Translations under genes and position numbers: made by a program | Notes under the pieces: model-generated | Seen by the model: the letters and a program-made list of their open reading frames with translations, nothing else | Database searches by the model: none | Told to the model about the DNA's origin: nothing | Virus record (IMG/VR): IMGVR_UViG_2693429605_000008 | Direction: 5' to 3' (one strand) | Source of the DNA: a virus | Taxonomy: Duplodnaviria > Heunggongvirae > Uroviricota > Caudoviricetes | DNA: 7,279 nt | Shown: positions 1,076-7,279 of the stretch, piece after piece | How the letters are laid out: every line of letters starts with the position of its first letter | Numbering within the stretch: the first letter of the stretch is position 1

Positions 1076-1390
1076 ATGACTCAAAACTATGAACTGATTG
1101 TGAAAGGGATCCGCAATTTTGAGAATAAAGTTACGGTAACTTTAGCGTTACGGGACAAAAAACGCTTTGACGGTGAAATTTTTGACCTGGACATCTCGCT
1201 GGACCGTGTTGAAGGTGCCGCGCTGGAGTTTTATGAGGCAGCAGCCAGAAGGAGCATCAGACAGGTCTTCCTGGATGTTGCTGCCGGGTTATGTGAAGAG
1301 GACGAGCTGTTGCCAGAAACGCGCCCCTGTTCAGAGGCGCGGAATACCATAAAAATTAACAGTTCTGATAACTCGATTACGTGTTGTTAG
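1076..1390 (+). CDS. DUF1327-family protein (YdfR-like), function unknown, inserted between holin and endolysin
   Basis: 104-aa ORF with SD GGGGAGAG (1061-1068) overlapping the holin stop. The holin / ydfR / rrr order matches what I recall for the E. coli Qin prophage lysis cassette. Family assignment is from memory, not an HMM search. Confidence 0.7.
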   Translation: MTQNYELIVKGIRNFENKVTVTLALRDKKRFDGEIFDLDISLDRVEGAALEFYEAAARRSIRQVFLDVAAGLCEEDELLPETRPCSEARNTIKINSSDNSITCC

Positions 1391-1445: not shown

Positions 1446-1979
1446 ATGAGCGCAAAAATCAAATACGGCCTGTCAGCTGCTGTTCTGGCGCTGATTGCTG
1501 CAGGCGCGTCTGCTCCTCAGATACTTGACCAGTTTCTGGACGAAAAAGAGGGTAACCACACAACGGCATACCGCGATGGTTCCGGCATCTGGACCATCTG
1601 TCGGGGGGCCACGATGGTGGATGGAAAACCCGTTTTTCCCGGTATGAAACTGTCGAAGGAAAAATGCGACCAGGTCAACGCCATTGAGCGTGATAAGGCG
1701 CTGGCATGGGTGGAGAAAAACATCAAAGTGCCATTGAGCGAACCCCAGAAAACGGGGATCGCGTCATTCTGTCCGTACAACATTGGTCCCGGTAAGTGTT
1801 TCCCGTCGACGTTTTATAAACGAATTAATGCAGGTGATCGCAGGGGAGCGTGTGAGGCGATTCGCTGGTGGATTAAGGACGGTGGCAGAGACTGCCGTAT
1901 TCGTTCAAACAACTGCTACGGTCAGGTATCCCGTCGTGACCAGGAGAGCGCGCTGGCGTGCTGGGGTATCGACAGATAA
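1446..1979 (+). CDS. R: Endolysin, glycoside hydrolase family 24 (T4/lambda-type lysozyme), SAR (signal-anchor-release) type
   Basis: 177 aa. The N-terminus YGLSAAVLALIAAGASAP is a weakly hydrophobic Ala/Gly-rich SAR-like segment. The catalytic region DEKEGNHTTAYRDGSGIWTICRG carries the E, D and T of the lysozyme triad. It pairs with a pinholin as in phage 21, and resembles E. coli RrrQ/RrrD by recall. Confidence 0.92.
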   Translation: MSAKIKYGLSAAVLALIAAGASAPQILDQFLDEKEGNHTTAYRDGSGIWTICRGATMVDGKPVFPGMKLSKEKCDQVNAIERDKALAWVEKNIKVPLSEPQKTGIASFCPYNIGPGKCFPSTFYKRINAGDRRGACEAIRWWIKDGGRDCRIRSNNCYGQVSRRDQESALACWGIDR

Positions 1980-2178: not shown

Positions 2179-2277
2179 ATGGCTGAAAAATTATCCACCT
2201 GGAAGTTCATTCTTATCTGGCTGGTGTTTGTGATTATGGCCTCCGGTTATTTCATCGGTCAGATACGCTGGTGGTGA
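2179..2277 (+). CDS. Small single-pass membrane peptide of 32 aa (45 aa if it starts at GTG 2140), function unknown
   Basis: [32 protein letters not shown] has one roughly 20-residue hydrophobic helix. SD GGGAGA (2165-2170) lies 8 nt before ATG 2179. The stop TGA (2275-2277) is 1 nt before the Rz ATG at 2279. An alternative start is GTG 2140 with GGAG at 2131-2134. Confidence 0.4.
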
Positions 2278-2278
2278 A

Positions 2279-2746
2279 ATGAACCGCGTACTGTGCGTGG
2301 TCATCATTGCCCTGCTGGTGGCCTGTGGTGCGCTTAGTCTGGGGCTGAATCATTACCGTGATAACGCCATTACCTACAAAGCCCAGCGCGACAAAAATGT
2401 CAGAGAACTGAAGCTGGCGAACGCGGCAATTACTGACATGCAGATGCGTCAGCGTGATGTTGCTGCGCTCGATGCAAAATACACGAAGGAGTTAGCTGAT
2501 GCGAAAGCTGAAAATGATGCTCTTCGTCGCAAGCTTGATAATGGTGGCAGGGTGCTCGTCAAAGGAAAATGCCCTGTGCCATCCTCAGCCGAAACCTCCA
2601 GCGCCTCCGGCATGGGCAATGATGCCACCGTCGAACTCTCTCCAGTTGCTGGACGAAACGTTCTCGGTATCCGGGACGGAATTATCCGCGACCAAACAGC
2701 ACTGAGAACGCTTCAGGAATACATCAGGACGCAATGCCTTCGATGA
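2279..2746 (+). CDS. Rz: Rz i-spanin (inner-membrane spanin subunit)
   Basis: 155 aa with N-terminal [26 protein letters not shown], then a charged coiled-coil-like periplasmic region. Same size class as lambda Rz, and Rz1 is embedded in it. Confidence 0.92.
2499..2705 (+). CDS. Rz1: Rz1 o-spanin (outer-membrane lipoprotein), wholly embedded in Rz in a different frame
   Basis: Signal peptide with lipobox MVAGC, followed by the Pro-rich segment [16 protein letters not shown] typical of Rz1. It lies entirely inside Rz (2279-2746). The exact start Met is uncertain (ATG 2499 or a downstream Met). Confidence 0.8.
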
Positions 2747-2919
2747 TAGCGATAATTTTACTCATCATCCTTCACATCTGGCTCTGTAGACAGGGTGGTG
2801 ATCACTTCTGGAGTGAATCCAGATTTAACATCTCATTGCTGATGCTTGATATTGAGCATCTTGCGCGCGGTAAGGGGCTGCGTTGAGATAAGAGCCAGTC
2901 ATCACAAACACCAGGATTT

Positions 2920-2947
2920 AGCCTCGCATTCGCGGGGCTTTTTATTG
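2920..2947 (+). terminator. Rho-independent terminator about 175 nt downstream of Rz
   Basis: AGCCTCGC (2920-2927) pairs with GCGGGGCT (2932-2939): 8 bp including one G-U pair, with a 4-nt loop ATTC, followed by TTTTTATT. Confidence 0.6.
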
Positions 2948-2964
2948 CAACAAAGGTAAAGACG

Positions 2965-3252
2965 ATGGATGAAGAATATCGTAAAGACCTGCAATTGTGG
3001 TTTGGCCTGACGCATGCGTCGTTCTGCGTGATGCCGAGAGTATTCATGGAGGCTATGCCGCAAGAATGGCAAGAGAAGATGGCGCAGTTGCTTTTTGAGT
3101 ATGGCGACACGATCAAAACGGATGTCTGCGGAGTTCACAGCTGTTTCGTTACTGCCAAAGACGGCAACAACCGCTTTATGAGGATGCCAGAAGATATTCT
3201 GAACTATCGTCATCCCCGGCGTGAGTTCATCGAATCATTTCTGAAGAAGTAG
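2965..3252 (+). CDS. Hypothetical protein, 95 aa (accessory ORF A)
   Basis: Plausible coding composition. The overlapping minus-strand ORFs (2802-3116, 2902-3213) have low-complexity, Cys/His/Arg-rich translations and are less plausible. Only a weak SD (AAAGG) precedes the ATG. No family recognised. Confidence 0.5.
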   Translation: MDEEYRKDLQLWFGLTHASFCVMPRVFMEAMPQEWQEKMAQLLFEYGDTIKTDVCGVHSCFVTAKDGNNRFMRMPEDILNYRHPRREFIESFLKK

Positions 3253-3345
3253 CCATTACAAAGTCTATCTGCGGGGGGCTTGATAAAGGTGCTTTCACCT
3301 CGCTTAGCATGGTATGTTCTGACTACCAACTTTTTGGGAGGACAC

Positions 3346-3570
3346 ATGGAACTGATAAATGGACGGCCAGGCAGAGATTTTATAGTGGGAACATATACCT
3401 ACTCAGAAATTAAAGATCTTAACTTCATGGCTAAGGAAGAGAAAAGAGCTCGTGAAGAGCTAAAGCATCGGGGTTACGAATTGGCGTATATCAAGGCGGA
3501 CTCTGAATGTAACGGGATGTTTGTCAGGGCGTACCGGGTCTATACTGACAAAGCGCCATCTAATGTCTAA
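3346..3570 (+). CDS. Hypothetical protein, 74 aa (accessory ORF B)
   Basis: SD GGGAGG (3336-3341) lies 4 nt before ATG 3346. The ORF-track start at 3280 is a TTG and is disfavoured. Mixed-charge sequence MELINGRPGRDFIVGTYTYSEIKDLNFMAKEEKRAREELKHRGYELAYIKADSECNGMFVRAYRVYTDKAPSNV. No family recognised. Confidence 0.5.
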   Translation: MELINGRPGRDFIVGTYTYSEIKDLNFMAKEEKRAREELKHRGYELAYIKADSECNGMFVRAYRVYTDKAPSNV

Positions 3571-3636
3571 ATATACCTCGGGCGGTTTTTTACGTTCATT
3601 ACCGTACGCAATTACAGCAGGCATTCATTGAGTGCC

Positions 3637-3645
3637 TGTGATAAT
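3637..3645 (+). promoter_or_regulatory. Putative extended -10 promoter element (TGTGATAAT) upstream of ORF C
   Basis: TGnGATAAT sits in the AT-rich 135-bp spacer between ORF B and ORF C, about 60 nt before the ORF C start. No good -35 hexamer. Sequence-only prediction. Confidence 0.25.
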
Positions 3646-3705
3646 GATTTATCAACGTGCTTGCAAACGGTATTCTAGACCTCCAATTATCCTAAGGAGG
3701 TTTTT

Positions 3706-4110
3706 GTGGTTAAAAATTTAGAATACATGAAGGGGATGCTTGAGGTATTTTTGAAAGCGAAAACTCCCTTTATATCTACAAAAGACTTAGCTAATGCGGG
3801 GTACGATATCTGCTCGAATGAAGGGATGTTTCATTATCTACTTCTTATTGAGCAAGGTTATATCAGTAATAAAGATCTAATAACGGATGACATAACTAAA
3901 CTGGGCTACATGCGCCATTGTGGCCATATGCTAGATATGGGTACCGACGTGCGACTATCTGCGCAGGGACAAGAATTCGCCCAGGCATTAAATGAACCTA
4001 CGGTTTTTGAGAAATTAAAGTCAATGAGCGATGCCCCTTTGAGTACAATCAAAGATGTTGGGCTGGAGTTAACGAAGGCCTATTTAAAGAAGAAATTTGG
4101 CCTCGAGTAA
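3706..4110 (+). CDS. Hypothetical protein, 134 aa, with an N-terminal winged-helix-like region; possibly DUF2513-like (accessory ORF C)
   Basis: Strong SD AAGGAGG (3694-3700) lies 5 nt before GTG 3706. The gene is visibly AT-rich compared with its neighbours. The motif EGMFHYLLLIEQGYIS looks like a wHTH recognition helix. The DUF2513 resemblance is recall only. Confidence 0.65.
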   Translation: MVKNLEYMKGMLEVFLKAKTPFISTKDLANAGYDICSNEGMFHYLLLIEQGYISNKDLITDDITKLGYMRHCGHMLDMGTDVRLSAQGQEFAQALNEPTVFEKLKSMSDAPLSTIKDVGLELTKAYLKKKFGLE

Positions 4111-4322
4111 AATTTCTACCCTCACGAGTTAAGTTGTTTTGTGATGGTTATTCGCAATGAATATCTCTAGCCACTGGCATTTGCTGGTGGTTTTTTTATG
4201 CGCATCCCTCGCGCACCACAAAGGGAGTCTTTCAGTAGTGATTCTGAATATCAGTGTGATAAACGTATTTGACAATCATTATCATTTTTGGTGGGTCCTT
4301 TCCGGCGATCCGACAGGTTACG

Positions 4323-4334
4323 GGGCGGCGACCT
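4323..4334. other. cosN: the lambda-type 12-nt cohesive-end sequence GGGCGGCGACCT, i.e. the terminase nicking site
   Basis: Exact match to the lambda left cohesive end as I recall it, with lambda right-end-like GTTACG immediately upstream. Distance to the Nu1 ATG (4512) matches lambda (nt 1 to nt 191) to within 1 nt. Confidence 0.85.
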
Positions 4335-4370
4335 CGCGGGTTTTCGCTATTTATGAAAATTTTCCGGTTT

Positions 4371-4490
4371 AAGGCGTTTCCGTTCTTCTTCGCCGTAACC
4401 TAATGTTTTTATTTAAAACACCCCCAGAAAAGAAAGGAAACGACAGGTGCTGAAAACGGGCTTTTTGGCCTCTGTCGTTTCCTTTCTCTG
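4371..4490. promoter_or_regulatory. cosB: terminase small-subunit binding elements (R3, R2, R1) with an intervening AT-rich IHF-type site
   Basis: CGTTTCC at 4375-4381, inverted GGAAACG at 4436-4442 and CGTTTCC at 4476-4482, with the AT-rich stretch TAATGTTTTTATTTAAAA (4401-4418) between them. The layout matches lambda cosB from memory. Confidence 0.7.
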
Positions 4491-4511
4491 TTTTTGTCCG
4501 TGGAATGAACA

Positions 4512-5031
4512 ATGGAAGTCAACAAAAAGCAGCTGGCTGACATTTTCGGTGCGAGTATCCGTACCATTCAGAACTGGCAGGAACAGGGAATGCCCGTTCT
4601 GCGAGGCGGTGGCAAGGGTAATGAGGTGCTTTATGACTCTGCCGCCGTCATAAAATGGTATGCCGAAAGGGATGCTGAAATTGAGAACGAAAAGCTGCGC
4701 CGGGAAGTTGAAGAACTGCGGCAGGCCAGCGAGACAGATCTCCAGCCAGGGACTATTGAGTACGAACGCCATCGACTTACGCGTGCGCAGGCCGACGCAC
4801 AGGAGCTGAAAAATGCCAGAGACTCCGCTGAAGTGGTGGAAACCGCATTCTGTACTTTCGTGCTGTCGCGGATCGCAGGTGAAATTGCCAGTATTCTCGA
4901 CGGGATCCCCCTGTCGGTGCAGCGGCGTTTTCCGGAACTGGAAAACCGACATGTTGATTTCCTGAAACGGGATATCATCAAAGCCATGAACAAAGCAGCC
5001 GCGCTGGATGAACTGATACCGGGGTTGCTGA

Positions 5032-5057
<26 letters not shown>
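4512..5057 (+). CDS. nu1: Terminase small subunit (lambda gpNu1)
   Basis: 181 aa. MEVNKKQLADIFGASIRTIQNWQEQGMPVLRGGGKGNEVLYDSAAVIKWYAERD... matches lambda Nu1 almost residue for residue by recall. Its 3' end overlaps the A start by 26 nt, as in lambda. Confidence 0.97.

Positions 5058-7279
<2,222 letters not shown>

Follow-up and report, generated by a model that had tools for sequence, protein, structure and literature searches.

Three single-gene cassettes and a hairpin element between the spanin genes and cos of a lambdoid prophage

The DNA considered here is a stretch of 7,279 nucleotides (nt; hereafter the window) from a virus of the Caudoviricetes (IMG/VR record IMGVR_UViG_2693429605_000008), and it covers the late region of a lambdoid prophage. 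Our subject is the interval 2747-4322, between the Rz/Rz1 spanin genes and cos, a slot that in phage lambda is occupied by bor and in the window by three small open reading frames (ORFs A, B, and C) together with two copies, E1 and E2, of a short hairpin element (Table 1). Comparison with related phages and prophages shows that the slot holds three independent single-gene cassettes, each belonging to a conserved, phage-restricted family that occurs in the same slot beside unrelated terminases. It also shows that the hairpin element is confined to the slot between lysis and terminase genes, where it lies in the late sense, usually right past a stop codon, and at mosaic joints. We consider it probable that the interval is one filling of a variable cargo slot, reaching from the spanin genes to cos and the terminase genes of temperate Enterobacteriaceae phages, and that its genes are late passengers punctuated by hairpins.

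The replacement of bor by small genes is ordinary, already catalogued mosaicism and would by itself change little; the hairpin element matters more, and is the only part of the analysis that might surprise a specialist. What is new here is that ORF B is a real gene left unannotated by RefSeq, that ORF C is a distant relative of the DUF2513 family with a predicted winged helix, and that a slot-specific hairpin stands at the joints of the cassettes.

Three cassettes in a variable slot

Among phages with ~98% identical Nu1/A terminase genes, at least six different contents are found between Rz and cos: bor, ybcV, ybcW, and two small ORFs in lambda itself; bor and small ORFs in PhiR11_1; a 50-amino-acid (aa) ORF, a Rha-family gene, and ybcV in PhiR70_1; different small ORFs in Kati; different plus-strand genes in YDC107_1 and PhiR46_1; and, in an ST131 prophage, the 50-aa ORF, other DNA in the place of ORF A, and then ORF B and ORF C. 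A preliminary description of the interval had taken it for a cargo-exchange site; variability between Rz and cos is well known among lambdoid prophages and amounts to textbook behaviour, so that this view is correct without being new. The same description had reported the lack of a bor-like gene, and indeed Bor, YbcV, YbcW, and two small lambda ORFs find no tblastn match better than E = 0.7 in the whole window (for Bor the best match, at E = 0.8, lies inside the terminase gene, and for YbcV the best is at E = 0.73). The three plus-strand ORFs of 95, 74, and 134 aa, a terminator upstream of them (T1, whose stem and T-run were recovered by our scan), and the lambda-type cosN are present as it had stated; it had overlooked the 50-aa ORF and a second terminator (T2, stem at 4169-4192). 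The GC content is 36-44% over 3450-4350, compared with 51-57% in the terminase genes.

The interval is sharply bounded on the right, where homology to lambda restarts at 4270, ~50 nt left of cosN and not at 4322, and runs to the end of the window at 98.0% identity (4270-7279). Alignment with lambda, DLP12, Qin, and an Stx1 phage gave this same right breakpoint, as did comparison with Kati, PhiR70_1, PhiR11_1, YDC107_1, and PhiR46_1; since homology to all of these starts at 4270, the joint marks the left edge of the cos region. Conservation of both flanking modules had been proposed, and it holds for the right side; on the left the window is lambda-like only as far as 2527, within Rz. The sole stretch of Rz covered by blastn against lambda is 2342-2527 (97% identity), and lambda Rz matches window 2279-2737 at 60% aa identity (tblastn); since the nucleotide match to lambda goes no further than 2527, Rz1 and the second, C-terminal half of Rz represent a different allele.

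Further left-hand joints lie at T1, which has a fold of -14.1 kcal/mol (z -4.0) and closes a block common to many lambdoid and P22-like phages; mosaic joints fall at 2945-2948, where homology to Kati, PhiR70_1, and the ST131 prophage stops. This block includes the 50-aa ORF (RefSeq WP_001390467.1; phrog_11822, 1e-37), which is inherited together with Rz1 and whose DNA is 92-98% identical in HK620, epsilon34, Sf6, CUS-3, and others. It is a putative gene only: its homologues differ by too few substitutions to estimate the ratio of non-synonymous to synonymous substitution rates (dN/dS), and one variant has an internal stop. To the right of T1, the window and the ST131 prophage align over 2337-2948 and again over 3253-7279, so that ORF A alone has been replaced; the gene behaves as a single-gene cassette with its joints at 2948/2949 and 3252/3253.

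ORF A has 45 homologue clusters, nearly all of ~95 aa, with identities down to 43% and a clear conserved motif, and differs from its counterpart in the P22-like phage HF4s by nine synonymous and five non-synonymous changes (dN/dS 0.12). Relatives placed after the spanin gene and ahead of the terminase genes include that of HF4s and one immediately upstream of the gene for the small terminase subunit in Vibrio phage Seahorse, and others occur in Sashavirus, Vibrio phages, and Pseudomonas phages; Sashavirus and similar carriers are, we presume, virulent. The domain family is large (1444 clusters at 50% identity, E <= 0.001) and has no Pfam model; the domain occurs on its own or at the C-terminal end of a longer protein. 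An N-terminal Lar-type zinc ribbon is present in 2 of 66 diverse members, and the N-terminal extensions of the longer relatives gave no informative Pfam domain. A PDB sequence search with ORF A found no match, nor did its predicted model (predicted local distance difference test [pLDDT] score 69) find a structural one. ORF A matches the C-terminal third of phrog_3527, and we considered whether it might be a truncated gene; this was rejected, given that the 45 homologue clusters keep the length of ~95 aa, and is also opposed by the lack of similarity to the Rha-family gene that PhiR70_1 carries at the same place.

ORF B belongs to a very small family (phrog_6100, 1e-55; five homologue clusters) in which all full-length homologues keep its length, and these always have lysis genes on one side and a terminase of one of three types on the other, with relatives upstream of DUF1441+GpA terminases or of Terminase_2 terminases. 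Its dN/dS is 0.11-0.19 against the homologues in loci L011 and L015. RefSeq has no coding sequence at this position either in E. coli O104:H4 2011C-3493 (NC_018658) or in the ST131 strain examined, and tblastn of ORF B against phage records gave no match. Judging from its substitution pattern, ORF B is under purifying selection and is a real gene missed by RefSeq annotation.

For ORF C, 12 homologue clusters were found at 50-96% identity, nine of them of 134 aa and the others of 136-146 aa; their genes lie downstream of those for spanins and upstream of those for terminases in phages or prophages of Yersinia, Klebsiella, and Pectobacterium, and in one metagenomic phage. Two families, DUF1398/YbcV and DUF2513, had been suggested for the ORFs. 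The former is wrong (Pfam DUF1398 has no match to any of them), and the latter applies to ORF C, at the level of distant homology only. ORF C itself has no match to Pfam DUF2513 at E <= 1, and relatives at ~50% identity score 15.8-19.3 bits, under the gathering cut-off of 29.6 bits. A protein 30% identical to ORF C, QBP07719 of Klebsiella phage ST846-OXA48phi9.2, scores 47.7 bits and passes, and this true DUF2513 member is encoded in the same slot in the Klebsiella phage as ORF C is here. Aligned by hhalign, the ORF C family and QBP07719 match over their full length (128 columns, 98.5% probability, E = 1.5e-15), which identifies ORF C as a divergent DUF2513 relative. An AlphaFold2 model (pLDDT 88.5) has three helices followed by a beta wing (H-H-H-strand) and C-terminal helices. 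The best Foldseek matches are MarR-family proteins, although weak (E = 0.02, TM scores of 0.3-0.46), and a viral structure library likewise returned a weak winged-helix match (E = 0.02). ORF C is thus predicted from the model to be a winged-helix protein and probably binds DNA. A PDB sequence search with ORF C gave no match, and a literature search for DUF2513 returned nothing relevant.

Scans of ORFs A, B, and C and the 50-aa ORF with Pfam, NCBIfam, and PADLOC yielded no significant family, PHROGs placed the interval ORFs in families of 'unknown function' only, and a literature search with the RefSeq protein accessions found nothing relevant. Nevertheless, the conserved lengths and residues, the dN/dS values, and the homologue clusters together indicate that ORFs A, B, and C are real genes; they are neither the standard content of lambda nor devoid of coding signal.

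A hairpin element at the cassette joints

Breakpoint mapping of the interval gave two islands of similarity, 3254-3286, which matches PhiR70_1 just after its Rha gene, and 3611-3646, which matches the Klebsiella phage named above immediately ahead of its DUF2513 gene. Both fit the pattern ATTACA, hairpin, TGATAA; the window has two occurrences of it, whereas 200 shuffled versions have none. The underlying element is 38-42 nt long and has the form CCAUUA-CA-[9-10-bp stem, 4-6-nt loop]-GA-UAAUGG, in which a conserved 2x2 internal loop separates the outer stem of 6 bp from the variable inner one. The window has exactly two matches, E1 and E2, to a covariance model of the element (R1), which also finds copies that bracket cargo genes in other loci and none in lambda, DLP12, or Qin. 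E2 is intact, with a fold of -17.2 kcal/mol (z -4.6), and stands 38 nt past the stop codon of ORF B and 58 nt ahead of the start of ORF C; 36 nt of it are shared at 94% identity or more by 27 of the 31 phage records with a copy, among them phi80, ZF40, and mEp390. A stretch of 33-40 nt from E1 recurs in PhiR70_1, behind the Rha gene, and in locus L015, ahead of the ORF B homologue. In the window a hairpin of one kind or the other follows every ORF of the interval: T1 the 50-aa ORF, E1 ORF A, E2 ORF B, and T2 (fold -13.9 kcal/mol, z -4.9) ORF C.

The stems covary. Over 35 distinct copies, 95.7% of the cells in the alignment pair, compared with 28-47% when the partners are slid; 7 of the 16 base pairs show compensatory changes, on both sides, and 63 cells are G.U. 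The late-sense strand folds better in 32 of the 35 copies, with means of -19.2 kcal/mol for this strand and -14.6 kcal/mol for the other.

The context of the element is equally consistent. A scan of IMG/VR in which the outer arms were fixed by pattern gave at least 120 loci; among the matches listed, 95 of 120 form a hairpin at -15 kcal/mol or better, and a recognisable lysis gene precedes 77 of the 95, while a terminase gene follows 39 of them, in each case on the same strand, with none in the opposite arrangement, whereas the 25 non-hairpin matches lack such a context. The element starts 0-5 nt past a same-strand ORF stop codon in 55 of 113 copies, compared with 12 of 554 random positions, and 80% of the pairs that can be formed from 94 distinct contexts have neither flank in common. 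In the named loci compared with the window it is always on the late strand. Known carriers include HK97, Sf6 (two copies), phi80, ES18, ST64T, many mEp phages, and Stx2 phages (the loci with the element are L003, L004, L005, L007, L010, L011, L015, L017, L018, L021, L022, L024-L026, L149, and L150), and BLAST with three sequence types of the element retrieved 147, 31, and 31 phage records, roughly 200 altogether, although the counts may overlap. In 185,579 species-representative genomes there are 13 hairpin-forming matches, all in Enterobacteriaceae, and 58 non-hairpin matches scattered in other taxa.

What kind of signal this might be is narrowed by two rejected candidates. The terminator scan calls T1 and T2 but not E1 or E2, and the hairpins are followed by GAUAAUGG, with no T-run; lacking a U-tract, E1 and E2 are not intrinsic terminators. 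ATTACA and GATAAT resemble the -35 and -10 hexamers, yet with 22-26 nt between them they do not make a standard sigma-70 promoter. The strand bias, the fixed orientation, and the position 3' of a gene instead point to a role on the late mRNA, and the arrangement of two stems around an internal loop is reminiscent of the sites at which RNase III cuts between genes of phage T7. Rfam has no match at the gathering threshold in the whole window and nothing over E1 or E2 at E <= 10, the curated phi80 record and the part of the Sf6 record examined (AF547987) do not annotate the element, and no earlier description was found in the open-access literature; a preprint on the small RNA Pas deals with the region upstream of the holin gene and not with this interval.

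Two further observations touch on T1. The hairpin element of Sf6 (L150 2487-2540) occupies the exact place that T1 has here (window 2887-2947), and T1 is preceded by CATCACAAA, which is similar to the arm CATTACAAA of the hairpin element; from this likeness, T1 and the element may share an origin.

Probable late passengers, hairpins, and the alternatives

Whereas bor lies on the opposite strand, all interval ORFs point the same way as the late operon. A scan for the sigma-70 consensus gave six matches, compared with 3.8 +/- 1.9 in shuffles, and none is directly upstream of an ORF. Expression of ORFs A, B, and C in the lysogen, as the preliminary description had it, is therefore not supported by the sequence, and the ORF A relatives in apparently virulent phages speak against it. 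The simplest reading, we infer, is that the genes would be transcribed by Q-modified RNA polymerase from the late promoter, as passengers of an antiterminated transcript that reads through T1, and as late-transcript passengers they would act in lytic growth as dispensable accessory functions.

The cargo of the slot elsewhere fits such functions. Genes that end at the hairpin element belong to at least 18 families, mostly without known function; recognisable are Rha in PhiR70_1 and phi80, a protein with an Acb2/Tad1 hairpin domain in IMG/VR locus L098 (PF24729, 3e-18), a Mom-like DNA-modification protein, gp36, in Pectobacterium phage ZF40 (L025; phrog_1384, 1e-39), and DUF2560. Cargo of this kind suits accessory or counter-defence functions in the lytic phase better than it suits lysogenic conversion; for ORFs A, B, and C themselves this is no more than a hint, and counter-defence roles are plausible for the set. 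Because the slot carries Acb2/Tad1-type and Mom-like proteins elsewhere, the unnamed families beside the element, among them that of ORF A with its 1444 clusters, are reasonable candidates for counter-defence or host takeover.

As to the hairpins, they may serve to process or stabilise the late mRNA between its cistrons, and their conserved sequence may at the same time supply 35-40 nt of homology where cassettes swap by recombination. That the element represents an undescribed class of cis-element, present in hundreds of temperate Enterobacteriaceae phages and serving both purposes, is a possibility that we put forward tentatively. If true, the slot would resemble an integron in its cassettes while lacking an integrase, and single genes, some of them for counter-defence, would be swapped between phages that are otherwise unrelated. 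The element is a concrete, testable handle on how accessory genes are cleanly inserted and exchanged at one lambdoid position and on how their expression is set within the late transcript, as well as a simple sequence marker for prophage cargo genes.

A number of observations weigh against the late-passenger reading or against this role of the element. Late-only transcription is itself our inference, and no function is evident for any of the ORFs, structure searches having given a weak winged helix for ORF C and nothing for ORF A. E1 is decayed, with a fold of only -7.3 kcal/mol (z -0.9). One b-type copy that was tested folds at least as well on the opposite strand (-25.2 kcal/mol, compared with -22.2 kcal/mol late-sense), and six b-type copies average -21.0 kcal/mol late-sense and -20.7 kcal/mol on the opposite strand. 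Conservation of the outer arms is partly built in, since the IMG/VR and genome scans fixed them, and only the BLAST surveys are free of this bias. There are also weak extended -10-like motifs before ORF B (TGGTATGTT, 3310-3318, kept as TGGTATGGT in L015) and before ORF C (TGTGATAAT, 3636-3644, inside E2), so that the element could carry a promoter function. T1 and T2 flank the array in the way expected of a moron, and the AT-richness of ORF C resembles that of acquired genes.

The last three of these points would also suit ORFs A, B, and C being morons in the strict sense, genes with their own promoters in the repressed prophage and a benefit to the lysogen, all the more so as the same slot in lambda holds bor, which is expressed in lysogens. 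We regard this as rather unlikely: the promoter-like sites are not above chance, the orientation of the ORFs is that of the late operon, the relatives of ORF A extend to phages that appear virulent, and no PADLOC defence model matches any of the ORFs.

A different possibility is that the hairpins act as DNA, either as recombination sites of a dedicated enzyme, in the manner of attC, or as linker homology, with gene-plus-element units as what moves. The position of the elements at mosaic joints and directly past cassette stop codons would fit, as would the conserved ends around a variable structured centre, an architecture that resembles attC. However, the ends CCATTA/TAATGG are unlike attC core sites, no recombinase gene was seen beside the arrays in the loci examined, and the G.U pairs favour one strand in 32 of the 35 copies, which fits an RNA, although it would fit a single-stranded DNA substrate too. 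On balance we hold the DNA-level explanation to be improbable.

Finally, that the ORFs are non-functional remnants or chance frames in decaying filler, for which one might cite the missing RefSeq annotation of ORF B, the lack of significant Pfam, NCBIfam, or PADLOC matches for the three ORFs, and the decay of E1, is in all likelihood wrong, being already contradicted by the substitution patterns of ORFs A and B and running counter to the conservation of length and residues down to 43-50% identity, the confident model of ORF C, and the strong ribosome-binding sites at ORFs B and C.

Surroundings of the slot and related systems

The gene order of the window is given in Table 1. A prophage found in E. 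coli O104:H4 and a few other lineages has the interval 2747-4322 at 99.9% identity. Of 5426 complete genomes, 30 contain 80% or more of the interval, and 26 (E. coli, O104:H4 included) contain the whole. The O104:H4 prophage (L001) matches 2263-4363 at 99.3%, and its Nu1/A-type terminase genes are only ~71% identical to those of the window, so that the two prophages are not the same. As a separate observation, cosN and the cargo, shared by the two up to 4363, are thus found with two different types of terminase and cosB, which recalls the packaging specificities of lambda and phage 21.

Table 1. Features of the window in gene order
Feature	Coordinates	Strand	Remarks
Sialate-esterase-type gene, 3' end			First in the window
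Holin gene			After the sialate-esterase-type gene
DUF1327/YdfR-type gene	1076-1390		Between holin and lysozyme genes
Lysozyme gene	1446-1979		After the DUF1327 gene
Rz (i-spanin)	2279-2746	+	Pfam Phage_lysis, 1e-31
Rz1	2499-2705	+	Embedded in Rz; Pfam Rz1, 3.8e-21
50-aa ORF	2734-2886	+	Overlaps the end of Rz; hydrophobic N-terminus
T1, intrinsic terminator	2920-2947	+	8-bp stem (2920-2939) plus T-run
ORF A	2965-3252	+	95 aa; single-gene cassette, bounds 2948 and 3253
E1, hairpin element	3253-3289	+	a-type; R1 44.2 bits, E 2e-10; begins at the first base after the ORF A stop codon
ORF B	3346-3570	+	74 aa from ATG; GGGAGG ribosome-binding site upstream
E2, hairpin element	3609-3647	+	c-type, intact; R1 47.7 bits, E 2e-11
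ORF C	3706-4110	+	134 aa; GTG start after AAGGAGG
T2, intrinsic terminator	4169-4199	+	10-bp stem (4169-4192) plus T-run; downstream of ORF C
cosN	4323-4334	+	GGGCGGCGACCT; left part of cos from 4270; lambda cosN sequence given in PMC12315714
Nu1	4512-5057		Downstream of cos
A	5032-6957		After Nu1
W			After A

Several smaller observations concern the flanks. Homology to lambda, HK97, Sf6, HF4s, and phi80 starts at ~2339-2342 inside Rz, and this start (about 2342-2395) coincides with a feature annotated 'bsq7; boundary sequence' in the Sf6 record (L150 1978-2025). The spacing between the lysozyme gene and Rz is ~300 bp (1980-2278), unlike in lambda; it contains a 65-aa ORF (2080-2277), the last 45 residues of which match phrog_6632, and several tiny hypothetical genes are annotated at its counterpart in O104:H4. 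The Pfam match of the DUF1327/YdfR-type gene covers only residues 1-79 of 104, and the O104:H4 counterpart is flagged as an incomplete pseudogene; the gene may be a truncated copy. A long inverted repeat at 4418-4497, in the gap between cosN and Nu1 and inside the stretch 98% identical to lambda, gave weak, sub-threshold Rfam matches; it probably belongs to lambda cosB and is not an RNA gene.

Among known systems, the closest to the genes of the slot is the bor region of lambda and the morons in general, which in lambdoid phages were reportedly described by Juhala et al. and by Hendrix et al. in 2000. Like morons (a definition is quoted in PMC2629481), the ORFs are presumably non-essential genes at one fixed position of the late region and are absent from close relatives; presence is patchy at a fixed map position, terminators bracket the array (T1 upstream, T2 after ORF C), and ORF C differs in base composition from its surroundings. 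Unlike them, they have no evident promoter of their own and follow the orientation of the late operon, and Bor is absent.

For the hairpin element, three comparisons can be made. Boundary sequences (bsq) of lambdoid phages, said to have been described by Clark et al. in 2001, are likewise short conserved sequences at the junctions of mosaic modules (as in Sf6, AF547987); the hairpin elements differ in being intergenic, structured, and strand-specific, with stems that covary, and they are not among the bsq annotated in the part of the Sf6 record examined. With integron attC sites the element shares an imperfect inverted repeat, conserved ends, a variable structured centre, and a place directly 3' of the cassette gene. 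It is shorter (38-42 nt), and its ends, CCATTACA and TGATAATGG, do not match the attC core sites, whose consensus is RYYYAAC/GTTRRRY; neither attI nor a gene for an integron integrase was seen near the arrays in the loci with annotation, although no systematic search was made. The PeSL cassettes of T4-type phages (Arbiol et al., 2010; PMC2839356), in which a strong early promoter of the sigma-70 type is joined to a stem-loop that terminates transcription, are also conserved intergenic stem-loop motifs in hyperplastic regions of non-essential genes, between which genes are replaced. The present element has no clear promoter or U-tract, and belongs to the late operon of temperate lambdoid and P22-like phages. 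With PeSL it may nevertheless share its effect on gene exchange: the 35-40 nt common to cargo joints would explain the clean replacement of single genes, as has been proposed for PeSL (PMC2839356).

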